Origin: Escherichia coli O157 typing phage 13
Length of the DNA: 64,000 nucleotides
Strand: one strand, 5' to 3'
Sequence record: KP869111
The notes under the pieces were generated by a model. It searched no databases and had not been told where the DNA came from. It saw only the letters and a program-made list of their open reading frames with translations. Made by a program: the position numbers and the translations under genes. Below are positions 42,321 to 64,000 of this stretch, in pieces; position 1 is the stretch's first letter, and each line of letters starts with the position of its first letter.

Positions 42321-42966
42321 ATGGCCGACATCAAACGTAAGTTCAGAGCCGAAGACGGTCTGGACGCCGGTGGCGACAAGATTGTTAACGTAGCATTAGC
42401 CGACCGTACAGTAGGTACTGATGGCGTAAACGTTGACTTCCTGGTACAAGAAAACACCGTTCAAGTATATGATTCTACGCGTGGATATAACAAAGGATTT
42501 GTTGTTCTTTATGACAACCGTTTATATCAAGCAATAAATGATATCGTGTCTCCTTCCGGGGCATTTAACCTTTTACAATGGCGTGCAGTTCGTACCGATG
42601 CACAATGGATAACTGTCGCTTCTGGGACTTATCAACTTTCTTCAGGTGAATCTATTTCGGTTAACACTGGTGCCGGCAATGATATGGTTTTCACGTTGCC
42701 AAATACGCCGGTTGATGGTGATACTGTTGTTTTGGCTGATATTGGTGGAAGAACCGGGACAGTTAAAGTACAGATTAACGCGTCTGTGCAGAGTATTTTA
42801 AACTTTAGAGGTGAACAAGTTCGTACAGTTTTAATGACGCGCCCACGTTCACAACTATTGTTTGTGTTTAGTAATCGTTTGTGGCAGATGTATATTACCG
42901 ATTATGGTAAAGAATCAATCACTGTTACACCTGCGACACCATATCAAGCACAAGCAAATGATTTTA
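42321..42966 (+). CDS. 34: Long tail fiber proximal subunit gp34, N-terminal 215 codons only (runs into N-run)
   Basis: MADIKRKFRAEDGLDAGGDKIVNVALADRTVGTDGVNVDFLVQENTVQ... matches the T4 gp34 N-terminus; frame is not continued after the N-run. Confidence 0.85.
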
Positions 42967-43066
42967 NNNNNNNNNNNNNNNNNNNNNNNNNNNNNNNNNN
43001 NNNNNNNNNNNNNNNNNNNNNNNNNNNNNNNNNNNNNNNNNNNNNNNNNNNNNNNNNNNNNNNNNN
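42967..43066. other. Run of 100 N at the junction between the two syntenic blocks
   Basis: Unresolved bases; sequence after it belongs to a different gene and to the opposite T4 orientation. Confidence 0.99.
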
Positions 43067-43125
43067 GCTACTATTGTTATCTCTCCGGCTGAAGAGACCG
43101 CACTGTTTAAAGCTAAGCATATTTC
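43067..43125 (+). CDS. 3' end of an unidentified CDS (possibly the upstream topoisomerase-subunit gene)
   Basis: Open frame from the N-run ending ...ATIVISPAEETALFKAKHISVAQLKIIAKTLL; T4 synteny would put gene 60 here; not verified. Confidence 0.35.
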
Positions 43126-43157
43126 TGTAGCTCAGCTTAAAATTATTGCAAAAACTC

Positions 43158-43187
43158 TTCTGTAAGTAGTTTACATCTTGATAGGGC
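43158..43187 (+). promoter_or_regulatory. T4-type early promoter (palindromic subfamily)
   Basis: GTTTACatcttgaTAGGGCTAtgtTATAGTAGTCCTAtcaaaac. Confidence 0.5.
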
Positions 43188-43226
43188 TATGTTATAGTAG
43201 TCCTATCAAAACAAATAGAGTCCACA

Positions 43227-43466
43227 ATGATTTATTACGAAAGTATCGGAACCAAAGTGGTTGGTAAAACCATTACTCGTGAAAAGTTTGCAAAGATATT
43301 CGATATGCGTTATAAAAAATCTGAACACAAAGGCATCCGATTCGAAGATGCGCACTGTACAATTTGCCCTTATAATGAAGACATAAACGGTACAATCGTT
43401 CCATTGGTAGAGGCTTCACATGATGACCTCTGGGATGAATATAATATCGCATGTCGTGAAATTTAA
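43227..43466 (+). CDS. Hypothetical 79-aa protein
   Basis: ORF downstream of an early promoter. Confidence 0.55.
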   Translation: MIYYESIGTKVVGKTITREKFAKIFDMRYKKSEHKGIRFEDAHCTICPYNEDINGTIVPLVEASHDDLWDEYNIACREI

Positions 43467-43494
43467 GTTAATGAATTAATCCGAGGAAAATATT

Positions 43495-44486
43495 ATGATG
43501 TTAGTTATTGGTTCTCGTGCACTTCACTATCACGGTCTTATTGATTCTAGCGCTATTAAAAATAGTGATTGGGACTTTATTGCGGACCAAGGTTCTTGGA
43601 ATGCATTCAAAAATCAAATGATGGGTGTATATGTTCACCAAGATAACCCTGATGTCCAAGTTTTCAAATGCTTCCATAATGGACGCGAAACTCATTTTGA
43701 AGCATATATTGTTCCGGCAATCACTAATGTCCGTGAATTAGTCGGTGAACTCACTCCTGAAGATTTCACGTCTTCTTATGACCTTTTAAAATACGCCAAG
43801 AAAAATTTGACTAAAGACCGTTTGAACGGGTTTTACTGGGCAACTCCTGAGATATGTCTTGCAATTAAGATGTCTCATCGTTTCAAGAAAAATAATCCAT
43901 TCTTTTTAAAGACTATGAACCATATTCAGTATCTTCGTGGTAAAGGTGTTACACTTAACGATGAACTTACTGAAATTATGCTGAAACGNNNNNNNNNNNN
44001 NNNNNNNNNNNNNNNNNNNNNNNNNNNNNNNNNNNNNNNNNNNNNNNNNNNNNNNNNNNNNNNNNNNNNNNNNNNNNNNNNNNNNNNNNNNNNNNNNNNN
44101 NNNNNNNNNNNNNNNNNNNNNNNNNNNNNNNNNNNNNNNNNNNNNNNNNNNNNNNNNNNNNNNNNNNNNNNNNNNNNNNNNNNNNNNNNNNNNNNNNNNN
44201 GAAGTTTGAATCACTTCCGGAAATGGTCAAATTGGCCGGTGTATATGAAGAAACATGTGTACTAGCGTTAGAACGTTCTCAGATTCCTAATGGCTTTGAA
44301 ATCCATCCTCGTGATAGTTTTATGATGGCATTAGAAAAGGTCTGTACTTCAATCACATCAGGCTGGTTCCGTGAGTATGCCTGGGAGAACTATGGCAAAG
44401 TAGTAAGTATGTATCAAAGCTTAGGACACGACGATTACGTCAAGCGTTTCAAACAAAATTTTCATATGGTAAAACCTTTCAAATAA
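43495..44486 (+). CDS. Hypothetical protein of about 259 aa, interrupted by an N-run (43989-44200)
   Basis: SD GAGGAAAAT before ATG; 5' and 3' parts are in frame if the N-run has zero real length. Confidence 0.5.
43989..44200. other. Run of 212 N
   Basis: Unresolved bases inside a CDS; flanks join in frame when the N are removed. Confidence 0.99.
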
Positions 44487-44498
44487 TTTCACCAAACT

Positions 44499-44528
44499 GT
44501 TTACAAGGTCTGTAGTTGTTGATACTAT
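44499..44528 (+). promoter_or_regulatory. T4-type early promoter
   Basis: GTTTACaAGGTCTgtagttgttgaTACTATAGACCTatcaaaac with inverted-repeat arms. Confidence 0.5.
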
Positions 44529-44565
44529 AGACCTATCAAAACAAATGAGTGAATGGAGATACAAA

Positions 44566-44766
44566 ATGACTACTTTGAATAAACGTTTCGGTAAAGCTAA
44601 ACCTGGCTGTGCAGCAGAACGTCGTTACATTTTCGCTCAGTTAGAAGATGTAGAGTATCAGATTAATCAAGTTCACATTACTGGCATCGAGCCTATGTGT
44701 GGCCTTGAAGCTCTTCGTGAAGTTCGTGACGGGTATCGTCGTGATATCGAAGAAATGTCAAAATAA
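44566..44766 (+). CDS. Hypothetical 66-aa protein
   Basis: Start chosen at the ATG preceded by SD GGAGA (MTTLNKRFGK...). Confidence 0.5.
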   Translation: MTTLNKRFGKAKPGCAAERRYIFAQLEDVEYQINQVHITGIEPMCGLEALREVRDGYRRDIEEMSK

Positions 44767-44796
44767 GTGTACAAACTGATAGGACTATGTTATAGT
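44767..44796 (+). promoter_or_regulatory. T4-type early promoter (palindromic subfamily, -35 GTGTAC)
   Basis: GTGTACaaactgaTAGGACTAtgtTATAGTAGTCCTAttaaaac. Confidence 0.45.
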
Positions 44797-44824
44797 AGTC
44801 CTATTAAAACATGAGGAGAATATT

Positions 44825-44924
44825 ATGAAATTAGGCGAAACCAACCGAATTGGTCTTTTAACAATATTTGTATCACTTTTTTACGCAGCTCTTTCTGTTG
44901 CAGTATTACAAAAGGCTTACAGTA
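44825..44924 (+). CDS. 5' end of a CDS with a hydrophobic N-terminus, running into an N-run
   Basis: SD GAGGAG; MKLGETNRIGLLTIFVSLFYAALSVAVLQKAYS; in frame with the rIIA body if the N-run is zero-length. Confidence 0.35.
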
Positions 44925-45024
44925 NNNNNNNNNNNNNNNNNNNNNNNNNNNNNNNNNNNNNNNNNNNNNNNNNNNNNNNNNNNNNNNNNNNNNNNNNNNN
45001 NNNNNNNNNNNNNNNNNNNNNNNN
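44925..45024. other. Run of 100 N
   Basis: Unresolved bases at the 5' boundary of the rIIA homology. Confidence 0.99.
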
Positions 45025-46554
45025 GAACGTGGTAATATCATGGCTGTTTATGGCGGTATTGTATATCCAATCGGAAGTGTTATTAAAGAACAAACATGGA
45101 TGATGACGCGATGCACTACAGCTTATATTAAATTCCCTATGGGTGAACTAGATGTAGCCCCGTCTCGTGAAGCATTGTCATTTGATAAACGTACAGTAGC
45201 AAATATCCATAAACGCGTTGCAGAAATCGATGCTAAATTGTTTGCTGAAGATTCTAAGAAATGGATTGATTGTAAATACCCACGTCATGTGTTCCGTGAA
45301 ATTGATTCTCTTGGCTATACCGCTCGTAAATACATGGAAAAGGCCGGGTCTAATATTGAATCACTGAAATACTCTAAAGAACAACTAACTTATTCTGAGT
45401 TGTACAAACGTTTTAAAATGGGGCCTGAGTGGTGTAATCTTGGCGTCGTATACGATATCGTTGAATCCCCTCGTCTTCGTCGTATTCGTGAAAGTGGTAG
45501 CTCATCATCAACCATTTCAATTAACAGCCTGATTGGCATTAACATTAAAAACGTTGAAATTGTTATTGACGACGTTAAGGGACGCGTTCCATTAATGCGA
45601 GCTCTTAATTCAATTGAAATGTCTAAAGACGAGGTTAAATTAACTGGTAAAGTTCCACGTGGTTTTGGTAAAAGCGTACTATTCGTTGACCCTACAGACG
45701 AAGATGCAATGAAACTTCTGGAACGCCTTAAAGTTATCTTTGATGGCGACAACATTAACATGTACAAGACTTCAGAGCTTTTACAAATCGTTAAGCCATG
45801 GATTGAAGTCAGGAAACGAACTAATGAGCCTCGTCCTAAATCCCCAAGTGCTCATCGGTTCTTTAAGAATGAAAATGATGTTTGGGTATCAGAAGATCTC
45901 TTTATTCCGGCAAGTGAAGCAGATGAAATCCAAGGTTATGCTATAGTTCGTAATCGTTCTAATGCTGAATGTCTTGACGCAGATAAAGGTTGGTTGAATT
46001 ATGATTCTAATTTCTTGACTCGTATTGCCGATTTGTCAGGTATTAAAGAGTTCACTGTAGTTCGCCCACAGATTGCTAAGAAAGTTCGTAAACTTGGTGA
46101 AGTAGAATGCTTGTTCGAAAAATCAATTAATGACTATATTACGCTAATTGATAAAGTGGATTATGATGAGTATGTATCACCAAGTCGTAGAGCACAGCCT
46201 TATTTGAATCATATTACTCGTAATGAAGAGCTTAACTTCCTTAGTAAGTATTTTAGCTCTAAGAACAAAGAAATCAGTAAAGATTTTGCAAAACTTTCAA
46301 CAGTAAATAATCGTTGGGGATGGAATCGATTCGCAGGTGCTGATAACAGAGACCTGAACAGGAAGTTAGAATTGTGTGCTAAAATTTTCGATAAGCTTAA
46401 AGATAATGCTTACGATTATGATGATAAAATGGTTATTGAATTTGAAACCAATTATCATATTGTGTCAGAATACATGGGACGACGTGGTACTCTTTCCAAA
46501 GAACAGGTCACTCAAATCGTTAAATTCATGAAGGCTGTGGAAGCAGCCAAATAA
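45025..46554 (+). CDS. rIIA: rIIA protein, C-terminal about 510 aa (N-terminal about 245 aa of the T4-length protein not present)
   Basis: ...AVYGGIVYPIGSVI...YIKFPMGELDVAPSREALSFDKRT... aligns to T4 rIIA from about residue 245 to the end; followed by rIIB. Confidence 0.85.
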   Translation, partial: ERGNIMAVYGGIVYPIGSVIKEQTWMMTRCTTAYIKFPMGELDVAPSREALSFDKRTVANIHKRVAEIDAKLFAEDSKKWIDCKYPRHVFREIDSLGYTARKYMEKAGSNIESLKYSKEQLTYSELYKRFKMGPEWCNLGVVYDIVESPRLRRIRESGSSSSTISINSLIGINIKNVEIVIDDVKGRVPLMRALNSIEMSKDEVKLTGKVPRGFGKSVLFVDPTDEDAMKLLERLKVIFDGDNINMYKTSELLQIVKPWIEVRKRTNEPRPKSPSAHRFFKNENDVWVSEDLFIPASEADEIQGYAIVRNRSNAECLDADKGWLNYDSNFLTRIADLSGIKEFTVVRPQIAKKVRKLGEVECLFEKSINDYITLIDKVDYDEYVSPSRRAQPYLNHITRNEELNFLSKYFSSKNKEISKDFAKLSTVNNRWGWNRFAGADNRDLNRKLELCAKIFDKLKDNAYDYDDKMVIEFETNYHIVSEYMGRRGTLSKEQVTQIVKFMKAVEAAK

Positions 46555-46563
46555 GGAAACATT

Positions 46564-47511
46564 ATGTACAATATCAAATGCTTGTCCCAAGAAGAACAGT
46601 TAGAAGCTTACGGCCTGGTTGAATCAGGCAAATGGACTCGTAAAGAAATTGCCGATTACTTCGACATTTCAACAGATACTCTTCGTAAGATTGTTAAGAA
46701 TTTTAAAGCAGAAGGCGTTGTCCCTGAAGCAAACGATGCCTCTTATGTAATCGAAGAAGTTCCAGAAAATGATGAACCTATTATCGGCGGACATCGTCCT
46801 GAAATCGTATGGAACGCGTCATCTAAATTTATTTCAATTATTGAAGGACGCGTAGCATACAATGCGACCCCATCAAGTCATGCAAATTTTGAAGAAATTA
46901 AAGCTAATCTGGTCGCAGGAAACCTTAGTAAAGCTGTCGAACTTATTAACATCAAGAAAGCTATTACTAAGTTTGTTGATGGTAATGTTACTATTGAAGG
47001 TGGTAGTTTATTTTATCAAGGTATAGAGATTCGTTCAGGGCTGGTTAACCGTATTATTGATTCCATGGAAAAAGGTGAAGACTTTAAATTCTATCTGCCA
47101 TTCCTTGAAAACCTGTTAGAAAACCCAAGCGAAAAAGCTGTACAACGTTTATTCGACTTCTTGGTTGCAAACGATATTGAAATCACTGAAGATGGGTATT
47201 TCTATGCATGGAAAGTAGTTCGTAAGGACTATTTAGACTGCTATAGTGGTACATTTGATAACTCCCCAGGTAAAGTTGTTTCAATGCCTCGTACTCGAGT
47301 TAACGACGATGATACTCAAACCTGTTCTCGCGGTCTCCACGTTTGTGCTAAATCTTATATTCGCCACTTTGGTTCAAGCTCAGATAAAGTTGTGAAGGTT
47401 AAAGTTCATCCACGTGATGTTGTATCCATCCCAGTTGACTATGGTGATGCTAAGATGCGTACTTGTCGTTATGAAGTAATTTCAGACGTTACTGAATTAT
47501 TTGCAGAATAA
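46564..47511 (+). CDS. rIIB: rIIB protein
   Basis: 315 aa versus 312 in T4; MYNIKCL... N-terminus and highly conserved C-terminal half. Confidence 0.93.
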   Translation: MYNIKCLSQEEQLEAYGLVESGKWTRKEIADYFDISTDTLRKIVKNFKAEGVVPEANDASYVIEEVPENDEPIIGGHRPEIVWNASSKFISIIEGRVAYNATPSSHANFEEIKANLVAGNLSKAVELINIKKAITKFVDGNVTIEGGSLFYQGIEIRSGLVNRIIDSMEKGEDFKFYLPFLENLLENPSEKAVQRLFDFLVANDIEITEDGYFYAWKVVRKDYLDCYSGTFDNSPGKVVSMPRTRVNDDDTQTCSRGLHVCAKSYIRHFGSSSDKVVKVKVHPRDVVSIPVDYGDAKMRTCRYEVISDVTELFAE

Positions 47512-47514
47512 TAA

Positions 47515-47540
47515 TTGGGGACTTCGGTCCCCTTTTTTTT
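47515..47540 (+). terminator. Rho-independent terminator after rIIB
   Basis: GGGGAC-UUCG-GUCCCC followed by T8. Confidence 0.65.
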
Positions 47541-47554
47541 CTTTAGGGGTAATT

Positions 47555-47842
47555 ATGATTCATCCATTTGACGTATCAGAATCCAAAATTGCTAATCTTC
47601 GTGGTCATCATAAGTGTAAATCAGTTTATTGTGCTAAATTGGTAAAACATCCTGGCGATGCACACTATGGCTGGTTAGAATGTGACGAAGTTGTTATTGA
47701 AATCCCACCGGTAGATGCAGAATATCTTGAAGAAGGTGACCGCATTTATTTTGGCGAACTACACATTAGAGGTATCTATGGTAAAGACGAACTTGGGACT
47801 GTTGAGGCTGAAGAGTCTTCCGACATTTATCCTGTCGAATGA
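47555..47842 (+). CDS. Hypothetical 95-aa protein
   Basis: Start at ATG with SD-like GGGGTAATT; Cys/His-containing. Confidence 0.5.
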   Translation: MIHPFDVSESKIANLRGHHKCKSVYCAKLVKHPGDAHYGWLECDEVVIEIPPVDAEYLEEGDRIYFGELHIRGIYGKDELGTVEAEESSDIYPVE

Positions 47843-47858
47843 GTTTTTGACTAGCGAA

Positions 47859-48335
47859 ATGAAGGTTAAGATCGCTGATACTGCTCGGTACTCGTTGAAA
47901 CAAGATCCAGGTCAAATAAAAGAAGACGTTGTTCGACGTTGTAAGGTTGCAGTCTTTGCAGAGTATGTAGTAGCAAATTGGCTAGACGGATATGTTAATA
48001 AAGGTAATGAAGACGTAGAAGACCCGTACACGTATGCATGGGACGTTTTAGCTCATCCTAAGTACTGTGGTCTACGCGTAGAAGTAAAGACCCATCAGAT
48101 GGATTCGAAATGGATTTCGGTTACCACAGGATACGGTGGTGATTATCCAGGTGGCAACGGAATCAACATAGGGCCCTTCTTGAACCATCGAGTCGCAGAT
48201 TGCATTATTATATTAGATGTCAAAGAAACCTCACCTGACGTCTTCTCTTATTCTATAAAGTTCGTGGGAGACCATGAAGACCTAAAGAAAATCGTCCGCA
48301 AGAGCAACTACAACGGGTGGTATCTTCATCTTTAA
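47859..48335 (+). CDS. denB: Putative endonuclease IV (DenB-like)
   Basis: 158 aa from the in-frame ATG; sits where T4 has denB after rIIB; the identification rests on position. Confidence 0.55.
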   Translation: MKVKIADTARYSLKQDPGQIKEDVVRRCKVAVFAEYVVANWLDGYVNKGNEDVEDPYTYAWDVLAHPKYCGLRVEVKTHQMDSKWISVTTGYGGDYPGGNGINIGPFLNHRVADCIIILDVKETSPDVFSYSIKFVGDHEDLKKIVRKSNYNGWYLHL

Positions 48336-48346
48336 TTTCATAAAAG

Positions 48347-48377
48347 TGTTTACAACTAAGTAGGACTATGATATAGT
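48347..48377 (+). promoter_or_regulatory. T4-type early promoter (palindromic subfamily)
   Basis: GTTTACaactaagTAGGACTAtgaTATAGTAGTCCTAtctaaa. Confidence 0.5.
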
Positions 48378-48403
48378 AGTCCTATCTAAAAGAGGATAAC
48401 ATC

Positions 48404-48667
48404 ATGAAATTTAAATTTTTCTACGCAAAACATAAAGTAACAGGCGAATTTGTTTCAATGTACAACACTGCAGATGACGAAGGGATGATTTATACCCATT
48501 TGGGTCTATCTCATTGGGACTCAGACGTGCCTTATATGTCATCTGAAGCCGAAATAACTCGTTTAGTTAATGGACATATGAACGACCATTTTAGTGTTAT
48601 CCTTTCTAAAGACCTTAAAGAGGTTATCAACAAAGGATATATGGAACTCGCGGAAGTTGAGATATGA
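48404..48667 (+). CDS. Hypothetical 87-aa protein
   Basis: ORF with SD GAGGA downstream of an early promoter. Confidence 0.5.
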   Translation: MKFKFFYAKHKVTGEFVSMYNTADDEGMIYTHLGLSHWDSDVPYMSSEAEITRLVNGHMNDHFSVILSKDLKEVINKGYMELAEVEI

Positions 48668-48859
48668 GCTCTAAAATGTGGATCGGAATATGGTTGCTTA
48701 GTATCCCAATGATTTGTATAATATTTTCAATTGTGTTGAGGTACTTATGAAAAATGCACTTCTTATTGTACTAAGATCAATTTGTGATACGGGTTTTTAC
48801 ATTGCATGTTCGTTCACTGGAACATGGTTGGCTTTAACATATTTTAATGTAATTTAATT

Positions 48860-48889
48860 GTTTACAACAAGGTAGGATTATGGTATAGT
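48860..48889 (+). promoter_or_regulatory. T4-type early promoter (palindromic subfamily)
   Basis: GTTTACaacaaggTAGGATTAtggTATAGTAGTCCTActgaaac. Confidence 0.5.
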
Positions 48890-48917
48890 AGTCCTACTGA
48901 AACATGAGGAACACAAA

Positions 48918-49118
48918 ATGGCTAAGCTTTTTAAAGATGTTGAAATTGGTGAAAAATTTGTTCTGAATAATGGTCAGCAGCTTATTCGTGTAGCTTCTAT
49001 CGCCGGACAAACTCATAACTGTATCGCCCCAACGTGTTGGACTCGATTTTTTATTGAAGATGACACTGAATGTTTAACTGTTGAAGAGCTTTTTGAACGT
49101 TCTGATATGACCGAATAA
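48918..49118 (+). CDS. Hypothetical 66-aa protein
   Basis: ORF with SD GAGGAA downstream of an early promoter. Confidence 0.5.
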   Translation: MAKLFKDVEIGEKFVLNNGQQLIRVASIAGQTHNCIAPTCWTRFFIEDDTECLTVEELFERSDMTE

Positions 49119-49194
49119 AATTGTACAAACTCTTGAGAGCAGAGTATAATGCTCTCATGGATTACAAAAACATTAATCAATTGAGGAAATTAGC

Positions 49195-49641
49195 ATGTCC
49201 AAATATTTAACTCGTAAAGACCTTCTGGCAGTTGGCGGTGAAGTTGTTGCAGTAGTTCGTAATGGCGAATACGGTTCTGAAGTTTCTAAAGAGTTTCGTT
49301 CTCGTGAAGGTTTTTACTTCTTTGTTAAAGGTTCATCTGATTGGCGACAAGTAGCAGCACGATTCTTTGTAGGACGTCAACGTTCTAAACAAGGGTTGGA
49401 TGCAATTCTTTCTCACATTCGTCAAGGCCGTTCGCAACTAGCCCGTACCATGGGCACTAATAATATTGAATATGATGTAATCTTTGTTGCAGCTAAGAAC
49501 ATGAAACCACTGACCACCGGTTATGGTAAAGGTCAATTGGCTCTGGCATTCACTCGCAACCATACATCAGAATATCAAACACTCACTGAAATGAACCGTC
49601 TTCTGGCTGATAATTTCAAATTCATTCTGCAGAGTTACTAA
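49195..49641 (+). CDS. ndd: Nucleoid disruption protein Ndd
   Basis: 148 aa versus 151 in T4; central region ...QRSKQG...LSHIRQ...RSQLART... and C-terminus KPLTTG...[13 protein letters not shown]...SEYQTL...EMNR...LADNFKF... match T4 Ndd. Confidence 0.88.
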
Positions 49642-49694
49642 TTTATACAGGCCCTATTAAGTTAGGCCTTTAATTTATTTTTGAGGTAATTAAA

Positions 49695-49841
49695 ATGGTA
49701 GCATGGATTATTGCATTGCTGTGTTGGTCGTTTTTATTCGTTAACACTTTAGTTACAGGCGAAACAACAGTATTTCAACAGGCCGTATCACAAGGTACCT
49801 TAGCGGTCTTAGCTCTTATTAACGTGTTAAAAGGCGAGTAA
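49695..49841 (+). CDS. Hypothetical 48-aa membrane peptide (below ORF-track cutoff)
   Basis: SD GAGG; single predicted TM helix; stop overlaps the next start (TAATG). Confidence 0.4.
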   Translation: MVAWIIALLCWSFLFVNTLVTGETTVFQQAVSQGTLAVLALINVLKGE

Positions 49842-49981
49842 TGATTAAGAAAATCTTAGCAGGAGCCTTCGGGCTCTTGTTGTTGCTTACGGTTCTGTAC
49901 TACGGTGTGATGTTTGGACTAATCCAAGTAGTGCTTTTCATTTCAGATGTTATAATGGATATTCGTTCATTAATATGGTGA
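49841..49981 (+). CDS. Hypothetical 46-aa membrane peptide (below ORF-track cutoff)
   Basis: Leu-rich hydrophobic core; translationally coupled; T4 has small membrane genes (ac, ndd.x) here. Confidence 0.4.
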   Translation: MIKKILAGAFGLLLLLTVLYYGVMFGLIQVVLFISDVIMDIRSLIW

Positions 49982-49985
49982 AAAT

Positions 49986-51394
49986 ATGCAATTGAATTCT
50001 CGTAATCTAAAAAGTATTATTGATAACGAAGCCTTAGCATATGCGATGTACACCGTTGAAAACCGTGCAATCCCAAACATGATTGATGGATTTAAGCCGG
50101 TTCAACGTTTTGTGGTCCATCGTGCGTTAGATTTGGCTCGTGGTAATAAAGAAAAATTTCATAAACTTGCGTCAATTGCAGGCGGTGTTGCAGATTTAGG
50201 TTATCACCATGGTGAATCTTCTGCACAAGATGCAGGTGCATTGATGGCTAACACATGGAACAACAACTATCCACTGTTAGATGGCCAAGGCAACTTTGGT
50301 TCTAGAACAGTCCANNNNNNNNNNNNNNNNNNNNNNNNNNNNNNNNNNNNNNNNNNNNNNNNNNNNNNNNNNNNNNNNNNNNNNNNNNNNNNNNNNNNAA
50401 AGCTGCAGCATCTCGTTATATTTTTGCTCGTGTAAGTAAAAATTTCTATAACGTATATAAAGATACTGAATATGCTCCAGCTCATGAAGATAAAGAACAC
50501 GTTCCACCAAAATTCTATCTTCCTATTATTCCGACAGTTCTTTTGAATGGTGTATCTGGTATTGCAACCGGTTACGCAACAAATATTCTGCCTCATAGTT
50601 TTAAATCGGTAAAAAAGGCTGTATTACAAGCTCTTCAAGGTAAAAATGTCACTAAGCCAAAAGTTGAATTCCCGGAATTCCATGGTGAAGTACATGAAGT
50701 TGATGGGCGTTATGAGATTCACGGAACATATAAGTTCACATCTCGCACTCAAATGCAGATAACTGAAATCCCATATAAATTCGACCGTGAAACGTATGTG
50801 AGTAAGGTTCTTGACCCGTTGGAAGACAAAGGTCTAATCTCATGGGAAGATGATTGTGGTGAACACGGCTTTGGGTTTAAGGTGAAGTTCCGTAAAGAGT
50901 ACTCGCTTCCTGATGATGAAGAGCTACGTCATGAAAAAATCATGAAAGATTTTAGTCTCATCGAACGTCGTTCACAAAACATCACAGTGATTAATGAAAA
51001 GGGTAAATTAGCAGTCTACGATAACGTAGTGGACTTAATCAAAGATTTTGTTGAAGTCCGTAAGACTTACGTTCAGAAACGTATTGACAACAAAATCCTT
51101 GAATCTGAAAAAGCATTTAAACTGGCTTTTGCTAAGGCACACTTCATCAAAAAAGTTATCAACGGTGAAATCGTGATTCAGGGCAAGACTCGTAAAGCTT
51201 TGACTGAAGAGCTAGCACAAATCGAAATGTATAAAGAACATGTCGATAAACTGGTAGGTCTTAACATCTTCCATATCACTTCCGATGAAGCACGTAAACT
51301 AGCAGAAGAAGCTAAAGCTAAGAAAGAAGAAAATGAGTATTGGAAGTCTACTGATGTTGTGACAGAGTACACTAAAGACTTGGAGGCACTTTGA
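49986..51394 (+). CDS. 52: DNA topoisomerase II medium subunit gp52, interrupted by an N-run (50315-50398)
   Basis: Both halves recognised as T4 gp52 (GyrA-like); halves sum to about 441 aa versus 442 in T4, so the 84 N stand for only about 1 nt. Confidence 0.9.
50315..50398. other. Run of 84 N inside gene 52
   Basis: Flanking codons are off by one frame, consistent with about 1 missing base rather than 84. Confidence 0.99.
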
Positions 51395-51465
51395 GTGCTA
51401 TAGCCTTAGGATTTCTCGGTGCAATAGCTGTACTAGTGATTTGGCTGTATTGGTTGGACAAACAT

Positions 51466-51490
51466 GATTAGGGAGCTTCGGCTCCCTTTT
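51466..51490 (+). terminator. Rho-independent terminator after gene 52
   Basis: GGGAGC-UUCG-GCUCCC followed by UUUUG. Confidence 0.55.
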
Positions 51491-51512
51491 GTGCATTTTT
51501 CTCACAAAACAG

Positions 51513-51540
51513 TTTACATGCGCTTCAATCATGATATTAT
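51513..51540 (+). promoter_or_regulatory. T4-type early promoter upstream of motA
   Basis: GTTTACatgcgcttcaatcatgaTATTATagacctatcaaaac (17-nt spacer). Confidence 0.5.
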
Positions 51541-51579
51541 AGACCTATCAAAACAAAACAACCAAATTGGAGAAATAAA

Positions 51580-52212: not shown

Positions 52213-52222
52213 GGAATACGTA

Positions 52223-54027: not shown

Positions 54028-54073
54028 TAATGGTACTATATCCATATCAACTAAGTGGAATGAATAAAACGTT

Positions 54074-55006: not shown

Positions 55007-55015
55007 AATACCTCC

Positions 55016-55567
55016 TTACTTAAAGATATTTATAATCGCTTTGATAATAGATTTGTTTTCAAGGTCAGGGAATTTAGGGAATTCGCCGCCAAGATGTTCA
55101 TGTTTTTCTAAAAGGGCAAAGAATTTTTTGAGCTCTTTAAATTTTCGTTTTTCTTCTCTACTAGCAACCTCTGCGTCAATAAGAGAACTTAAAACACTGA
55201 ATAATTTATAGAGTTCATGAATTTTCTTATCACGTTGAACTACGCGTTTATATGCTTCATCTTCCTTCCACCCGTCGTCGGTCCAAATGTCAAATTCACC
55301 GGGTTCTTCTGTAGTAACATTTTGAAGAGCACCTGGAGTGTCAATAACAATTTTTTGCTTATCATAAGTCCATACCGTTTTTCCACGATGGTCTTCAACA
55401 TATACCCATTCTTGCTCGCGTTCGTCAAATATAACAGCATAGCCTTCTTTAGGGTCTAAAGGTTTTTTTGGTGTCGAATGAGCCGGAAATCCTACGCCTT
55501 TTAATGGTTTATAATTTTCTTCTTTGTAAAATTCTTTAGTGTCAAAATAATAGTGATAGAGTTTCAT
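55016..55567 (-). CDS. 38: gp38 tail-fiber assembly chaperone (T4 type)
   Basis: Start set to MKLYHYYFDTKEFYKEENYKP... (T4-like N-terminus); the ORF-track start 18 nt upstream lies inside a hairpin. Confidence 0.85.
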   Translation of the reverse strand: MKLYHYYFDTKEFYKEENYKPLKGVGFPAHSTPKKPLDPKEGYAVIFDEREQEWVYVEDHRGKTVWTYDKQKIVIDTPGALQNVTTEEPGEFDIWTDDGWKEDEAYKRVVQRDKKIHELYKLFSVLSSLIDAEVASREEKRKFKELKKFFALLEKHEHLGGEFPKFPDLENKSIIKAIINIFK

Positions 55568-55598
55568 ATTATAAAAAAGGGACATAAGTCCCTTCTCC

Positions 55599-58500
55599 TT
55601 ATGCTAAACGAACGATATAGTTAAAAGCAACGTTTTTAACTGTGTTTTCTGTATTTCCTGTGGCATTTACAGTTATTGTATGTCCATGGGAACCAATTGC
55701 AACAGTATGAGAATGAGCACCAATACCTACCGAATGGGTATGAGCACCAATACCCACAGTATGAGCATGGTTACCTGTGGTACTTGTGGTTCCTGACCAA
55801 GAGTGTGTATGGTTACCTTCTGAAGAAGTTTTGGCTATATTCGACCCTGCAGTAGCACCGTTCACGGTTCCAGTGAATTTAGCGTTGGCGTTTGCACCTA
55901 CACTATTATATCCGTCATAGAATATGTTATTGGGTATGCCAGCTTGTATCTGAGGACCTGAGCGCGCATGTTGGTGGTTACCTGCAGCACTTGTAGTTCC
56001 ACNNNNNNNNNNNNNNNNNNNNNNNNNNNNNNNNNNNNNNNNNNNNNNNNNNNNNNNNNNNNNNNNNNNNNNNNNNNNNNNNNNNNNNNNNNNNNNNNNN
56101 NNNNNNNNNNNNNNNNNNNNNACCGTATGGTTATGGTTACCTGTGGTATTACTGGTTTTAGTACCATAATCAAAGCTTGAAGATGTTTTAGTACCATAAT
56201 CAAAGCTTGATGTGGTTTTAGTACCTAAATCAGTATTAGATGCTGAAGCACTATGGTTATGAGACTTAATACCATCAGCTTCTGTACTTAATACATCACG
56301 CCCAGATGGTTTACCTTTAATCGTCTGACCACGCATATCGGGCAGAGTGCCGGAAGGATACACCGCAGCTAACTTAGGATACAAGCCAGTATCAAATGTT
56401 TGACCTTCCATTATGGCATAACCTTCAGGAGGTGTATCAGTAGGCCAAGGAATCGGAGCACCAATAGGATAACTTGAGACAATATCTGTCTTAAGGTTAT
56501 TTATTGTGGTATTCAAGTTAGCAAAATTACCAGAACCGCCGGTGATATTACCATCAGTACCAATACGAACATTACCAGCGCCTAATTTACCAGGAGAGTA
56601 NNNNNNNNNNNNNNNNNNNNNNNNNNNNNNNNNNNNNNNNNNNNNNNNNNNNNNNNNNNNNNNNNNNNNNNNNNNNNNNNNNNNNNNATCACCGTTTTTA
56701 TTAAATTCCCAACCTAAATCCTTTATAATTGCGCCAGTAGAAACGCCGTCACCACCTTCGTGATAGTGAACTCTAAAGTTACCACCATTAATTAAAGTAC
56801 CAATAGAATAGCAACTATTATTTTGAACGTATCTTTGTTTCACAATAGGAACATAAGTGCTTGTATCTGTTCTATCAATATTCATATAGAACGGAGCACG
56901 AACGTTTTCATTATTCTGAGAAGCAAAAGAACCGGCTCCAGCAGGTCGTGCAGTATCAGTACATTCAGCGTCGATATATGCCGATTGTCCTAATTGCATA
57001 CGGTAATTAGGAGAAATGCGACTATGACTAGTTATAACAACAAGTTTATTATCATTATCAACGGTCACCATATTACCGCCAGCACCATCATCACCTAACG
57101 TAACAGAATGGCGCATTTGAACCATACCGTTGTTAAGAGAAACACTCAATGGGCGAAGGTTAGAAATACCACCATTTTCACCTGCATCTTTAAGTGTAGG
57201 TATAATATGCAAAGACGCTTCAGAACGACGGAAAATAGCTCCATATTCAGCATTGTAAATACGGAAAGCATCTGCGGTATTGCCGATTTTAACTTGACCG
57301 GTAATAGAACCACCGCCGGATAAAACAAGCCCGTTATCCATAGTAACTTGTCCGGATAATGTACTTAATCCATTAACTCTAAGACTTCCATCGGTGATAA
57401 TGCTCCCTCTTGCATTCAGTTGTCCATTAATTTGTGTTACAACAGGTCCCACAGTTTCTGAACCGGTTGGAGCTACGCGCTGAGAATAAAAATAATATCC
57501 CTGGCCGTCAGCTACTTCAAAAACTGTTTCACGATTACGATCGCCAGATGCGTTAAATGAATTACCCCATGCTTTAACAGTTACATAGCTTTTATTCTGA
57601 CCAGCACGAGTACCGCCTTCCCACAAAATTTGCTTAGTGCCATCAATTGTAGTAGTTGGAGCGAATGTTAGCCCAGCAGTAGAATTATTAGCTGCTAAAT
57701 ATATGCCGTTATATATTGAAAGCTGCTTAACAGATGTAATACCGCCATCAGCATAAAACATTACATTATTAGAGCCAGTTACTAGTTTAAGAATACCCGG
57801 GTTAATTTCCATACCTTGTTGGGTATTGATATTCATCTGACCTGTACCACGGAAATAGTGGTTCATTTTACCACCAGCATTGTACCCGATATGGGTTTGT
57901 CCGTCTCCAGCATTGTTATTATCAGCTTGTGTTTGAACAGACAAGAGAGCAGCATTTGTACCAGGCATAATCCATGTGGTGCCTTGGTCCTCGGAACGAC
58001 CAAATATACCTTTACGAGTACTACGGAAACTGTCAGGAGTAATAGAAGCAACAGAATTCCAATTACCTACTAAATCATAAACACCCTGCTTAATGTATTT
58101 TAAACCAGTGGCAGCATCACCCAAAGCAATATATCTTTCTCCCATTGGAGTAGGAGAGCCGTAGTTATTGGTATTTTCATCAGTGGTAATTGTGCCAATA
58201 GCAAGTGAACGACGTAATACCATTGCGCCATCATTACGAAGACCCATTAATTTAGTAGTAAGTGTATTTCCGGTCCACCAAGAAATTTCATCATTCTTAC
58301 CAGTTTGAGCTGAAGCGATTTCATGGTAAATAGTTCCACCTGATTTAGCTCGAACTTTACGAAGATAGTTTATACCATTTTCTTCACCTGTTCCAGGATA
58401 AACATATTGAACTAATGACTGTGAATCATATTGTCCGAATGCTTTTGTGTCTAAAACAATGGTTTTCGTATTAACTTGTGGAGCAGAAACTATACCATTA

Positions 58501-59081
58501 GCGGAGTTAATATTGCCTGACGCAGAAATATTACCTGCGCGGACCTCAATACTACCAGAATCTACAATAAAATTACCATTACGGTTAAAGACCCAGTGTT
58601 TAGAATTGTCTGGAGCTGTAGAATCAATATAATGAACTCTAAATGAGCCTTCGCTTACTAATGTACCTACTGAAAAAGTACCGTCTTTATAACGTTGCTT
58701 AATCAAAGGGTGGTATTCAGAAGTTGAAGTAGTTGAACTCAAATCTGTAAAGATAGGGGCTTTATTTGTGTGTTGGTTAGCCCAAGCGCCATTTCCAGCA
58801 GTTTTTGGCAAGAATTCAATATACTTTCCTGCATAAACAAACTGGTTTCCATTAAGATTATACGTGCCGTTTTGTAAATAATCACCATTTTGAGTTACAT
58901 TACCGTTAATATCCCCGCCCTTAGCAAAGCCTAGGCTAATAATATTACCGAGGTCATCTTTAGTAAAAAGAGTTCGATCTTTTAAGTTTATCGCTAATTC
59001 GCCTTCGGCTAATTGTGCTGCAGTAGGATTAACTCCTGCTACTTTGCTTCTTTTAAATTGTATCTGTTTTAATGTAGCCAT
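55599..59081 (-). CDS. 37: Long tail fiber distal subunit gp37 (two N-runs inside)
   Basis: Large ORF between genes 36 and 38; C-terminal tip rich in G-x-H-x-H motifs as in the T4 gp37 needle domain. Confidence 0.9.
56003..56121. other. Run of 119 N inside gene 37
   Basis: Unresolved bases; reading frame maintained across it. Confidence 0.99.
56155..56244 (-). repeat. 30-bp tandem repeat (about 2.5-3 copies) inside gene 37
   Basis: gttttagtaccataatcaaagcttga(a/t)g(a/t)t repeated at 56155, 56185, 56215; encodes repeated DYGTKT(S/T)SSF decapeptide near the receptor-binding tip. Confidence 0.8.
56601..56687. other. Run of 87 N inside gene 37
   Basis: Unresolved bases; length is a multiple of 3 and frame is maintained. 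Confidence 0.99.
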
Positions 59082-59089
59082 AAGTCCTC

Positions 59090-59755
59090 TTAATAATAGC
59101 CGAAATCTTGAACAGAATCTTTAATTACAATCTGGTCGAAACGAGGAACATGATTAGCCTCAGACGCCGGATTCTGTGAGAAAAAGTTTGGTGCTGTTAA
59201 AGTACCAGTCATGGTATCGCCTTTACGCAATACACGGGAATTTGCGTTATCCGTAACAATATTTATTCGTCCATCAACATAATCTTTTCTAGTAAGGTCA
59301 TTCGCTGCTATAGGAGCAGCCGCATCACTTCTTACTTGACCAGCTGCCGACACAACGCCTTTTGTATTAATATCACCATTACGTGTATTAATTACTACAG
59401 TTCTACCCGCTGTTCCTTGTGATGATTTAAAACCAATACCATACCACGAAACAATATCAATATTTGCTGTAACAAAAGTAGCTGCATCTCCATTACCAGG
59501 ATAAATACCAGATTGATTTGTATTGTTTATAGCATATGGTATTTGAACACCGCCGTTAAATGTTACCTTTGATGCATAAGTACCACCATTTGCTTTAGAA
59601 ACGAAATCATTATCAGCAGCTTGTGGCTTATTATATTCTGAATAGAGTTTAAACGTTTTATACAGGACGTCATCACCTGCTGGCATTAAAGGGAAATTAC
59701 CTTGATGCCATATAACGGCACCGCCAGTTGTACTACCAGCTTTTAAATCGGCCAT
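59090..59755 (-). CDS. 36: Long tail fiber distal connector gp36
   Basis: 221 aa as in T4; position between genes 35 and 37. Confidence 0.92.
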
Positions 59756-59779
59756 AGTTGTCTCCTTATATGTATACCA

Positions 59780-59787
59780 TATTTATA
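59780..59787 (-). promoter_or_regulatory. Late promoter TATAAATA upstream of gene 36
   Basis: Exact TATAAATA on the minus strand about 25 nt before the gp36 ATG. Confidence 0.55.
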
Positions 59788-59794
59788 CAAAAAT

Positions 59795-59816
59795 GGGAGA
59801 CCGAAGTCTCCCTAAA
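59795..59816 (-). terminator. Rho-independent terminator after gene 35
   Basis: GGGAGAC-UUCG-GUCUCCC followed by AUUUUUG on the minus strand. Confidence 0.55.
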
Positions 59817-59817
59817 T

Positions 59818-61009
59818 TTATTCTGGTGCTTCTTTAAATTCTTGACCAAATACCTTACCAGTATCAGTTGAAGATTGAGTAGGTAATGTCATTATGTCTG
59901 GAGCACTTAAAGATTCTGAAACATAATTTACACGAATACCATTCGTACCAAACTCAGCAGGTTTTGAAACGCTTCCATTACATGATACTTCAGTGAATAT
60001 AACGTTTCTTAATCCACCTTGCCCGACTGGAGCTGTACGATAACAATAAATCGTGAACCCGTCAGCACCAGCAGGAATTTCTACGTAGTCTTCATATATC
60101 TTCCATTCACCTGCAGCCCCATCAAAGTTTATATCCTTAAATGAAATAGGTGAAGTAGAAGGAGATTTAAAGAAACGAATAGAAAGTCGTGTCGTCCCTT
60201 GTGCTAACAAATCGGCATCGGCCATTAGTTGGAATTTCATATAAAGGAAATCTCCAGGCTTCAATTTATACCCAGCGAGAGGTGTAATAACAGATGCTGT
60301 AGGCATCCTTTTAATTTCGTTATTAGTACCTCCAATGGCAGATAAAAATGTGTCTGACGATTCATACGTACGTCTAGGGAAGCCGGTAGCACCAATATCA
60401 TCGATCGTGTCGTACACAACATCAAGTGGTGTACTATAGTCGGTTGAAGTTTTCTTATTACTATACTTAATATGTTCTAGTGCTATAGCATTCTTACCAG
60501 AAATATAAAATGCAGAATAAGAAATGTCCACTATATTTAAAACTTGTTGAGCTAATGGAATAGCAGAACTCCCAGCTTTAGTAAACCATGCAAGAACTTC
60601 TGGTGGAAAGTTTGTTTTAGCGTTAGTAACAAGAGCAAATATAAAATTTGAAGCATATGTGTCCATGAAAGTAACAAATGCACTTGACGTGGCGTCGTTT
60701 TCAGTAGAGAAATTATATGTCTTAGATTCAACTACTGCACCTGTTGTAGGATTTATTACACGAACGTTTAATCCAACGGAAAAAACCTGGGACCCAAGTG
60801 GATTATCCTGGAACTTAATATAAGCAGGAGATGTTGATNNNNNNNNNNNNNNNNNNNNNNNNNNNNNNNNNNNNNNNNNNNNNNNNNNNNNNNNNNNNNN
60901 NNNNNGGGCAAGAGCCCGCTATGCTTAATTTAAATCGTACTGAATTGCTTTCCGATAAAAATGGCGTTTGGACGTATCCTTGTCCAAACTTAGCCATAAA
61001 TTTTTCCAT
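59818..61009 (-). CDS. 35: Long tail fiber hinge protein gp35 (N-run inside)
   Basis: MEKFMA...LSESNSVRFK... start and position between 34 and 36; the two parts join in frame if the 67-N run is removed (about 374 aa versus 372 in T4). Confidence 0.85.
60839..60905. other. Run of 67 N inside gene 35
   Basis: Unresolved bases; zero-length join restores the frame. Confidence 0.99.
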
Positions 61010-61017
61010 AATACCTC

Positions 61018-64000
61018 TTATTCAATCCACTCGAATTTAACAGATTTATTCACAGGGTCTGGAATAATGCGGACATTACCAATCCTTAAGAAATCCCTTA
61101 TTGTCAAGTTTCCGATTGTTGCATTATCAGAAGGTAAAGCACCAATATCAGATGGCTGAGGAGGGTTACCCCCATCAAATACTTGAACAAAACTTGACCA
61201 AGAATTTTTAGTTTTCTGCCATGTACGAGTCCAACGGGTTGTACGTGCTTCTGGGGTTGTTGGATAAGTAATCCAATCTTGGTAAAGTGAATCAAGTGTA
61301 TTACCAAACTGAGTCAATGTACCAGGAGATTTAACTTCTTCGCCACGTTCTAAGTATGGAAGCCCAGTCACTTCATTAGTTTTTTCAACCATTTTAAAAT
61401 AACCTGGGAACTGGTTATAAGTGGCTGAATCGTTAATATCAATTGACCAGAATCCTACATTATCAGATGTTGGCGCACGGGTATATAAATCGGATGTTTT
61501 AGTACCCTGAGAACGAATTCTCGAGTTAACAGTCAAACCGCCAGAATTTATAGTAGCACCATTGGCAATGATTAAGCCTTCACCAATTGTAATCTGACCG
61601 GATTGGTTATTAATTGATAATGGACGTAATCCATTAAATCCACCGGTCTGATCACCAGATGCAGTAAGCATAAAATATGTGCTGCCGCCATCATTGCGAA
61701 TAAAGAATCCATAATCACCACTAATTGCTCTGAAAGCATTTGCAGACTTGCTAATGAATTCACCATTGGCTGTAACTGAACGACCAAATGTTGCAACGCC
61801 ATTCGCATTTAACGTGCCTGAAGCGTTAACATTTATTGGCATCACAGTACCATTAATGCTAAACGTTATATTCCCAGCTTTATTACGTTGAGAATAAAAG
61901 TGATTAGATGTTTCATCGCCAACTTCAAATACAGTAGAACGTGTTGTATCTGAACCACCACCAAATTCATTTCCCCAAACTCTGATAGTCATAGTTTGAG
62001 CAGGATTTGTTCCGGTCTGAGGTCCTTTTTCAAAAATCAGTCGAGTAGCTGTTCCAGAGTTAGAAATAGTTAATGTACTATTTGCCGAAACTGAACCACC
62101 AAACGTAGCAGTACTAGATGATACAAGAGGGGCACTCAGATTCGTTTGTTGGGTTAAGGTTAGTGAACCATTAACCGTCTGTGCAATGTCCCTACGAATG
62201 AACTGAGATGAATCTAGACCATCTAATAAATTACTATCTATGGCTTTAGCTTTCAACGGCAAATAGTTAGCAAGTACACGGTTTAATTCATATGGAGATA
62301 TAGCATAGCTATTTTTTTCATATGATTCTAAAGGTTGCGTTGAACCAACTGTATCATTACCAACGAATGTAATAGAACCAGATGAAGTTTTAACGAATCC
62401 ACGAATCGCCGTAGTAGCAGCCCATGTTGGTTCAGACTGGACAATCCATTTTAAATTCTTAGGAGATACAGCAGTATTAGCAGAAGTTCCTGTTACAGTT
62501 TCAGCCCGAGTAGCAACCTTAATTACGCCTTCAGACGTTTCAGTGGACTTAGTCCCTAAAAGCTTTTTAGGAGTAATAAGAACATCATCTAAAGTTCCTG
62601 CATTAGATTCTGCCTGAGTCGCTACGCGAAGTGTACCACGTTGTGTTTCATTTGCTTTAGAAATATCAAGAGTATAATGGTTCCACAAGGTTCCTTCTTC
62701 AATAAGTCCGGAATCAGAATTAACACTGGTACGGTCAGAAGAATCAAAATGAGTTTTAATTTTCAGTGGAGTTGAGATACGAGTATCGTCAGTTCCAGTA
62801 TCAAATTCAACTTGCGTAGCAAGTTCGGCTATGCCGGATAATCCTTCCGTAGCTTTCCTATCATTTAACGTCTTAGGCGTTACTGCACGTGTATAATCAG
62901 TCCCAGCATTAGTTTCTGCTTGCGTAGCAATTTCAATTAAACCAATACGTCCATCAGTAGAAGTTTTCTTATGTAGTGTTTCAGGAGTTACTACAGCGTG
63001 AGAATAACCTGCTTGTGATTGACCAGCAATTACTTCACTATCAACAGCTAAAATTACTGCACCTTGTTGAGCATAAGTTGCTTTATATTGGTCAAGGGCT
63101 TTAGGAGAAATAGTTAAATTATTTACGGTTTTATTATAAACGTTAGTGCCTGCAGCACCACGAGTTTCAGCAGGAGTAGCAGAAGTAGTTGATACATATT
63201 TAACTATACCTGATAGTGTTTCAGAACCCTGACGTGCCTGCAATTTCTTAGGTGTAATAATCGTTGTGTCATCAAGACCAGCATCGGTTTCAGTCTGAGT
63301 AGCAATTTCAGCAAGACCGCGACGAGTTTCAGTTGCTGTACGCTCATTTAGTTTTTTAGGCGTAACAATAGTATCGTCCACAAATGATGCTGTGGAATTC
63401 TGGTTAACTTGTGCTGTTGTAGCAATTTTAGCGATACCACGTCGAGCTTCAGTTGCTGTACGATTTGCCAATGTTTCCGGAGTAATAGCCACTTCTTTAG
63501 CTGGAGTATTCTCTAAATCAACATTTGCTTGCGCTTGAGTAGCAAGAGCAATAACACCTAAACGAGCTCGTGTAGCATCATTTCCAGCATCAACACGTTC
63601 TACCGTAGGGACATTCTGTTGCACAACCCAATAGTGAGTGTCAGAATCAGTGTCTTCGATATACGCTAATTCTAATACAGGAACATATGAAGTAGTGCCA
63701 TTGAATTCTAGTTCAGTAACAGAGACCCATTGAGCATCAGGTGGATATTCAGAACGTTTAGGGAACTGAAGCAATGCAACAGAAGAAGCAATTGTATCAC
63801 CTTCGGCAGCTTTAATTTTTACTGTTTGGCCTTTACGCATGTAGTTCATTGAAATTTTAACAGTGTCACCACTCAAAATTCTGGTAGGCAGCGTAAGATT
63901 AATAGTTCCGGTTGTAGCGTTATTTGTGCCAAAAATAAGAACTTCTTCATTTGGACGAATATTTGAATCCGCACGGATAATACGAAGACGTGATTTCTGG
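61018..64000 (-). CDS. 34: Long tail fiber proximal subunit gp34, C-terminal about 990 codons (5' part beyond window end)
   Basis: Frame open to the window edge (the ORF-track M at 63876 is a TTG, not a true start); ...SGDTVKISMNYMRKGQTVKIKAA... through ...KFEWIE matches T4 gp34 from about residue 300 to the C-terminus. Confidence 0.93.
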   Translation of the reverse strand, partial: QKSRLRIIRADSNIRPNEEVLIFGTNNATTGTINLTLPTRILSGDTVKISMNYMRKGQTVKIKAAEGDTIASSVALLQFPKRSEYPPDAQWVSVTELEFNGTTSYVPVLELAYIEDTDSDTHYWVVQQNVPTVERVDAGNDATRARLGVIALATQAQANVDLENTPAKEVAITPETLANRTATEARRGIAKIATTAQVNQNSTASFVDDTIVTPKKLNERTATETRRGLAEIATQTETDAGLDDTTIITPKKLQARQGSETLSGIVKYVSTTSATPAETRGAAGTNVYNKTVNNLTISPKALDQYKATYAQQGAVILAVDSEVIAGQSQAGYSHAVVTPETLHKKTSTDGRIGLIEIATQAETNAGTDYTRAVTPKTLNDRKATEGLSGIAELATQVEFDTGTDDTRISTPLKIKTHFDSSDRTSVNSDSGLIEEGTLWNHYTLDISKANETQRGTLRVATQAESNAGTLDDVLITPKKLLGTKSTETSEGVIKVATRAETVTGTSANTAVSPKNLKWIVQSEPTWAATTAIRGFVKTSSGSITFVGNDTVGSTQPLESYEKNSYAISPYELNRVLANYLPLKAKAIDSNLLDGLDSSQFIRRDIAQTVNGSLTLTQQTNLSAPLVSSSTATFGGSVSANSTLTISNSGTATRLIFEKGPQTGTNPAQTMTIRVWGNEFGGGSDTTRSTVFEVGDETSNHFYSQRNKAGNITFSINGTVMPINVNASGTLNANGVATFGRSVTANGEFISKSANAFRAISGDYGFFIRNDGGSTYFMLTASGDQTGGFNGLRPLSINNQSGQITIGEGLIIANGATINSGGLTVNSRIRSQGTKTSDLYTRAPTSDNVGFWSIDINDSATYNQFPGYFKMVEKTNEVTGLPYLERGEEVKSPGTLTQFGNTLDSLYQDWITYPTTPEARTTRWTRTWQKTKNSWSSFVQVFDGGNPPQPSDIGALPSDNATIGNLTIRDFLRIGNVRIIPDPVNKSVKFEWIE

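Follow-up and report, generated by a model that had tools for sequence, protein, structure and literature searches.

In concatenated draft phage pseudomolecules the breakpoints coincide with runs of 100 N, the pieces between them are colinear, and the canonical map returns once pieces are reordered or flipped. A spacer of 100 N is the GenBank convention for a gap of unknown length. The window analyzed here, a stretch of 64,000 nucleotides from the record KP869111 of Escherichia coli O157 typing phage 13 (TP13), agrees with such pseudomolecules in each of these respects, and no difference was found. It also shares a trait with the G cassette of phage Mu and the C cassette of P1, which are inverted by the serine invertases Gin and Cin: tail-fiber genes lie within the apparently inverted block. 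Known invertible segments of this type measure about 3–4 kb. The window belongs to a Mosigvirus, a T4 relative similar to RB69 and JS09. Over all shared blocks its nucleotide identity to E. coli O157 typing phages 3 and 6 (TP3 and TP6; KP869101 and KP869104; Mosigvirus 0157tp3) is 100%, and TP13 shares its species taxon with both. As in the window, an assembly boundary interrupts gene 34 of TP3 and TP6 in its 5′ third. In contrast to the window, however, each of these two genomes is a single N-free contig in which the boundary is formed by the record ends and the gene is intact on circularization, whereas the source of the window consists of several pieces, one of them apparently flipped.

Gene 34, which codes for the proximal subunit of the long tail fiber, is split over two strands in the window, as the sequence-only reading had described. 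The 5′ fragment starts with the ATG at 42321 and runs on the plus strand to 42966, the end of the first contig block, comprising 215 codons (1–215, up to 42965) plus one base. This segment (42321–42966) is 100% identical to TP3 1028→383, and its translated product matches exactly the start of the 1291-aa gp34 as reconstructed from TP3 and TP6. The 3′ part is located on the minus strand at 61018–64000 and holds codons 299–1291 and the stop codon; its translation (993 aa) is identical to the C-terminus of gp34 from the same two phages. Position 64000 corresponds to nucleotide 894 of gene 34, and the 3′ part ends there owing to the edge of the window, not to a rearrangement. The window lacks residues 216–298 of gp34 (247 nt). 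Probably, most or all of these 247 nt would fall past its right edge. The layout is not a product of chance, as the matches extend over tens of kilobases at 100% identity.

Eight N-runs were counted in the window, seven of them within 42321–64000, where the earlier reading had mentioned one. Only two runs comprise exactly 100 N, and these mark the only two joins that are not colinear with the relatives. The first (42967–43066) is flanked by sequences corresponding to the non-adjacent positions TP3 383 and TP3 75027, and the second (44925–45024) by TP3 83786 and TP3 149951. The six other runs (67–212 N) connect pieces that are colinear in TP3 and TP6. Block 1–42966 is colinear with TP3 43295→383, which bears out the proposal that it has a single orientation and stops within gene 34. 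The proposed second block of opposite orientation, 43067–64000, stood in part: the order from rIIA to asiA on the plus strand and from t through the chaperone in the gene-38 position, 37, 36 and 35 to 34 on the minus strand is correct, but 43067–44924 is foreign to it. This 1.9-kb segment forms a small scaffold of its own, which derives from a remote part of the genome (TP3 75027–75174 plus 82065–83786). The flipped block thus begins at 45025, inside rIIA at codon 229 of 737 (TP3 149951), and not upstream of rIIA as had been assumed for the inversion endpoint. Up to the last base at 42966, and again from 45025, alignments to TP3 stay 100% identical. Therefore, no rearrangement junction was ever sequenced.

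The flipped block (45025–64000) opens on the plus strand with the 3′ fragment of rIIA (codons 229–737, 45025–46554), a gene located at 149267–151480 in TP3. It is followed on the same strand by rIIB, denB, ndd, gene 52, motA, small ORFs and asiA (46564–54346; coordinates taken over, via alignments, from the annotated TP3 and LH01), all colinear with the relatives. An N-run at 50315–50398 interrupts gene 52. On the minus strand lie the holin gene t (54347–55006), a Tfa-like tail fiber chaperone gene in the position of gene 38 (55016–55585; Pfam Caudo_TAP), gene 37 (55599–59081), gene 36 (59090–59755) and gene 35 (59818–61009), next to the 3′ part of gene 34. Gene 37 contains the N-runs 56003–56121 and 56601–56687, and gene 35 contains the run 60839–60905; these stand for 2, 3 and 3 real bases, respectively.

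Comparison with the closest complete genomes, which had been suggested as a check, shows gene 34 intact and colinear throughout. The two ends of the TP3 record overlap by 290 nt and those of the TP6 record by 298 nt; once joined, they yield an uninterrupted 1291-aa gp34 that holds both fragments of the window. These independent assemblies of an identical genome thus show gene 34 intact. In the finished genome of LH01, the counterparts of window positions 42966 and 64000 are locus positions 17651 and 17403, which share a strand and lie within one annotated gene of 1291 aa. The same spacing of 247 nt between the two fragments is found in the finished genomes MK373778, MK962754 and KR422352, and also in all testable independent contigs (9/9). 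Moreover, a full-length gene 34 adjoins the RNase H gene in all ten contigs with an identical RNase H.

From these comparisons we infer, with a probability of roughly 95%, that the split and inversion of gene 34 are a scaffold-orientation artifact and that the gene in the phage itself is almost certainly intact and normal. An orientation error had already been considered likelier than a real inversion, and the 100-N spacers at the join, the lack of any junction sequence and the colinearity of siblings and relatives support this view. Both breaks, 42966/43067 and 44924/45025, fall on N-runs and not on sequenced junction DNA, and flipping the rIIA-to-gene-34 block restores colinearity with LH01, the three other finished genomes and the nine contigs. 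Presumably, short-read assembly yielded several contigs, one of which would have ended inside gene 34 at nucleotide 646, while a second would have had one end in rIIA and the other in gene 34. The contigs would then have been concatenated with 100-N spacers for deposition, their true order and orientation being disregarded. The rIIA-to-gene-34 contig would thus have come to lie flipped relative to its real neighbor, with an unrelated small scaffold wedged between them. Turning 45025–64000(+) round and setting it after 42966 would give an intact, colinear gene 34 of 1291 codons, with about 247 nt to fill.

Taken at face value, the way the two blocks are oriented to each other in the record would suggest that about 19 kb are truly inverted, with one breakpoint in gene 34 and the other in rIIA. 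Both genes would then be inactive, be it in the entire phage population or only in a fraction of defective genomes that depend on a helper. The breaks in gene 34 in all four related assemblies could conceivably reflect structural heterogeneity as well. Nevertheless, we consider such an inversion very improbable. The join consists of 100-N spacers and an unrelated scaffold, and the junction sequence between gene 34 and rIIA is absent from the window. A search with blastn-short for an inverted repeat between the two breakpoint regions returned only matches of 8–10 nt (E ≥ 0.6), so that the breakpoints share none able to mediate recombination. Both identical siblings are colinear, as are all relatives examined. 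In T4-type phages gene 34 is essential for the long tail fibers and for infectivity. Since the phage is used for lysis-based typing, a working copy must therefore exist, which likewise speaks against an inversion in this functional typing reagent. In a weaker form, the 5′ third of gene 34 would be rearranged or otherwise structurally heterogeneous in a part of the phage stock; at the extreme, defective genomes with the inversion between gene 34 and rIIA would be propagated beside the wild type. This would explain the breaks in all four related assemblies, but there is little chance that it is true.

It is similarly doubtful that the layout results from a simple linearization of a circularly permuted genome, in which an arbitrary record start or end cuts a gene and nothing is misoriented. 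The TP3 and TP6 records show just such an opening inside gene 34. In the window, however, the fragments are internal and on opposite strands, with spacers and another scaffold between them; a contig flip would thus be needed in addition. The opposite strand assignment refutes linearization as a full account; it explains only the contig boundary in gene 34. A programmed, site-specific invertible segment of the Mu G or P1 C type that switches fiber variants has a practically negligible probability in spite of the tail-fiber genes within the block: no flanking inverted repeats or crossover sites were found, a Pfam scan of the nine unassigned ORFs revealed no resolvase or invertase domain (the only match being Caudo_TAP on the chaperone), the remaining ORFs of the block are known T4-type genes in the TP3 and LH01 annotation and none is named a recombinase, the block lacks alternative C-terminal exons, its breakpoints fall inside essential or unrelated genes, cutting gene 34 near the N-terminus as well as rIIA, and its size of about 19 kb is wrong for such a cassette.

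While concatenation of contigs would account for the orientation, the position of the break in gene 34 deserves a separate comment. The paper describing these typing phages reports Velvet assemblies with 1–7 contigs per phage and groups TP3, 6, 7 and 13 together. In each of the four related assemblies a break falls within the 5′ third of gene 34. The records of TP3 and TP6, which are reverse complements of each other, open there at the same point, and the TP7 record likewise starts in gene 34. Since mismatches are located exactly 144 nt from both ends of the overlap, the break in TP3 and TP6 looks like an unresolved assembly bubble. This symmetry implies k = 145 (or reads of 145 nt), and thus disagrees with the 90–120 that the paper gives for k. 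The first contig of the window ends at nucleotide 646 of gene 34, 93 nt ahead of the break zone of TP3 and TP6. Several other causes of the break were considered and rejected. A repeat elsewhere in the genome does not account for it, as TP3 1–1200 matches only itself and the terminal overlap, and the base composition is unremarkable (GC 0.31–0.45 across the zone). The T4 replication origin ori(34) is located in gene 34, but no mechanism would let an origin interrupt an assembly of virion DNA.

Accordingly, the gene order in KP869111 is in all likelihood an artifact of contig pasting. No new biology follows from the layout of gene 34, and its main value is one of caution. An annotator who trusted the record as it stands would wrongly call gene 34, rIIA and genes 35, 37 and 52 truncated, frameshifted or over-long; gene 37, for instance, reads as 1160 aa in the record versus 1093 aa in reality. 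IMG/VR contained no exact match to a 100-nt pattern across a junction peculiar to the window, and exact look-ups of proteins expected from the N-broken record alone (truncated rIIA, truncated gp35 and gp37 read through its Ns) gave no match either. As the record layout is arbitrary in this typing-phage data set, the published suggestion that gene order explains host-range differences among near-identical typing phages should be treated with care.

The small scaffold (43067–44924, plus strand) represents the variable region from ipI to e, and its ends match TP6 85534–85387 and 85094–84947. It contains the 3′ end of a gene resembling that of internal protein I (assigned to Pfam IPI_T4 in relatives), a hybrid promoter/stem-loop repeat (43168–43214), an ORF of 79 aa (43227–43466), a DUF7277/DUF7275 gene (43495–44486) interrupted by the N-run 43989–44200, and two small ORFs. 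In this hyperplastic region, a deletion junction is located at 43168–43214, within a repeat of about 50 nt that combines a stem-loop with a sequence resembling an early promoter. Promoter-early stem-loop (PeSL) elements are described as a means of modular shuffling in T4-type phages (PMC2839356, PMC4122927). The likeness to PeSL shuffling is confined to this repeat, was judged by resemblance and not by the published consensus, and bears no relation to the layout of gene 34. The deletion in the variable region comprises 6.9 kb in the source of the window and 8.1 kb in TP6, with none in TP3, and NRG-P0074 has the same deletion junction as the small scaffold.

Gene 34 begins in the window with an ATG at 42321 on the plus strand and runs into Ns at 42967, and a long gene 34 ORF on the minus strand extends from 64000, the window edge, down to 61018. 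Both ORFs are thus present as the sequence-only reading described them, with the 5' piece on one strand and the remainder about 18 kb away on the other. Nevertheless, at a probability of about 95%, the split and inversion are an artefact of scaffold orientation. This explanation, already preferred in that reading, is borne out by non-syntenic joins that occur only at 100-N spacers and by the colinearity of siblings and relatives. The window contains eight N-runs, not the single one reported earlier, and the non-syntenic joins coincide with the two runs that measure exactly 100 N (42967-43066 and 44925-45024) and with no others. The remaining six (67-212 N) connect pieces that are colinear in the E. 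coli O157 typing phages 3 and 6 (TP3 and TP6).

In a megablast search of the blocks flanking the junction against 50,697 phage records, 100% identity was found for TP3 (KP869101, 168,733 bp) and TP6 (KP869104, 160,570 bp) only, together with the corresponding RefSeq entries. The two phages are members of the species Mosigvirus 0157tp3, and TP13 (KP869111), probably the source of the window, shares this species taxon. The blocks were mapped by local BLAST against the complete TP3 and TP6 records. Window 1-42966 (contig A) corresponds to TP3 43295 to 383 in reverse orientation. All other pieces lie forward: 43067-43214 on TP3 75027-75174, 43168-43988 on 82065-82885, 44201-44924 on 83063-83786, and 45025-64000 on 149951 to 168578. 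Hence 43067-44924 does not belong to the rIIA block, to which it was formerly assigned, but is a small scaffold of its own that derives from a distant region, and the flipped block starts at 45025, within rIIA (TP3 149267-151480). Window 45025-46554 holds rIIA codons 229-737 only. As the first 684 nt are missing at the contig boundary, rIIA, too, would be wrongly annotated as a truncated gene.

Circularly permuted genomes usually yield overlapping record ends when assembled. The TP3 and TP6 records overlap themselves at their ends by 290 and 298 nt, respectively, with about 99.3% identity, and joining the ends gives a single unbroken gene 34 ORF of 1291 codons in both. Gene 34 is therefore intact in these identical siblings. 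The plus-strand fragment of the window equals residues 1-215 of the joined product, and the minus-strand fragment equals residues 299-1291 with zero differences. Residues 216-298 (247 nt) are absent from the window and would be expected just past position 64000. The finished relative LH01 (PP434429), a complete genome with 98% identity, has the order rIIB ... 52 ... motA ... asiA, t, 38-like, 37, 36, 35, 34, rnh, dsbA, 33, 59, 32. Its gene 34 is annotated as a single 1291-aa protein with 98.5% identity to the TP3/TP6 reconstruction. Window positions 42966 and 64000 correspond to positions 17651 and 17403 of this LH01 locus, so that the comparison with a finished relative, which had been suggested as a check, places both fragments on the same strand of a one-piece gene, 247 nt apart. 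According to the coordinates, the same spacing is found in MK373778, MK962754 and KR422352. An identical RNase H is encoded by ten independent contigs from isolates, metagenomes and read-archive assemblies. A full-length gene 34 (1277-1292 aa) adjoins it in all ten, and in each of the nine contigs close enough for the test, the window fragments share one strand with 247 nt between them.

A real inversion in the source phage is very improbable. T4-type phages need gene 34 for their long tail fibres, and typing phages are functioning lysis-typing reagents, both of which argue against it. The window is 100% identical to TP3 through 42966 and again from 45025, the bases that directly adjoin the Ns; consequently, no junction was sequenced. 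Repeats common to the breakpoint regions in gene 34 and in rIIA are just chance 8-10-mers (E of at least 0.6). Nine unassigned ORFs of the flipped block were scanned against Pfam and contain no recombinase domain, the sole match being Caudo_TAP on a tail-fibre chaperone; the TP3 and LH01 annotations list the other genes of this block as ordinary T4-type genes.

As to the origin of the orientation artefact, Velvet assembly of the reads gave 1-7 contigs for each phage, and TP3, 6, 7 and 13 form one group in which TP6 and TP13 are nearest each other (PMC4429339). Assemblies in this data set repeatedly break in the 5' third of gene 34. The records of TP3 and TP6 are mutual reverse complements, both opened at the same point of gene 34, and the TP7 record also begins within this gene, near residue 171. 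The terminal overlaps contain mismatches at a distance of exactly 144 nt from either overlap end (positions 145-146 of 290 in TP3, 145 and 154 of 298 in TP6), which affect gp34 codons 295 (L/R/W) and 298 (D/G); W295 occurs naturally in LH01. These symmetric mismatches look like an unresolved graph bubble that opened the circular contig. The break shared by all four assemblies was caused either by stock heterogeneity or by position-specific sequencing error. For the window, the weak gene 34 region would have yielded a contig end, and the contigs would then have been joined by 100-N spacers, ignoring true order and orientation. Contig A ends at gene 34 nt 646, 93 nt short of the TP3/TP6 overlap zone, and the implied k-1 of 144 disagrees with the published k range of 90-120 (PMC4429339); neither affects the artefact verdict.

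Judged by these comparisons, the layouts of the TP3, TP6 and window records are evidently arbitrary assembly products. Gene-order differences among the near-identical TP8, 11 and 12 were suggested as a possible cause of differing infection profiles (PMC4429339). Given the arbitrary layouts, this suggestion may rest on a like artefact.

The small scaffold derives from the variable ipI-to-e region and lacks 6.9 kb relative to TP3 (TP3 75175-82064). Its deletion junction (43168-43214) is a hybrid formed from two copies of an intergenic repeat of about 50 nt, which comprises an early-promoter-like sequence (GTTTACA...TATAGT) and a stem-loop with a 13-bp stem (fold z=-4.1). TP3 has seven copies within 10 kb, TP6 shows a different 8.1-kb deletion bounded by two other copies of the same family, and the finished phage NRG-P0074 carries the window's junction uninterrupted. 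PeSL-mediated shuffling has been described in T4-type phages (PMC2839356, PMC4122927), and the 6.9-kb deletion at a promoter/stem-loop repeat resembles such PeSL-mediated deletions.

The distal tail-fibre module (55016-59081, minus strand) is of the RB69/Mosigvirus type, and its gene 37 has a Collar domain. The label 38 for the following gene holds for its position but not for a T4 gp38-type identity: in contrast to that adhesin, the product is a lambda-Tfa-like chaperone (Caudo_TAP, E=2.5e-5).

The TP3 and TP6 records contain zero N, and in comparison the assembler-sized N-runs greatly overstate the internal gaps. The runs 50315-50398, 56003-56121, 56601-56687 and 60839-60905 (84, 119, 87 and 67 N) replace 1, 2, 3 and 3 real bases, and 22334-22451 and 43989-44200 (118 and 212 N) replace 66 and 177. 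LH01 agrees on the true size of three of the four short gaps, the gene 37 gap (56003-56121) not being checkable there, and the gene 35 run (60839-60905) is bridged by 3 bases in the read-archive contig SRR1391163_21. ORFs are inflated or broken by N-runs: gene 37 reads as 1160 instead of 1093 aa, and genes 35 and 52 are split.
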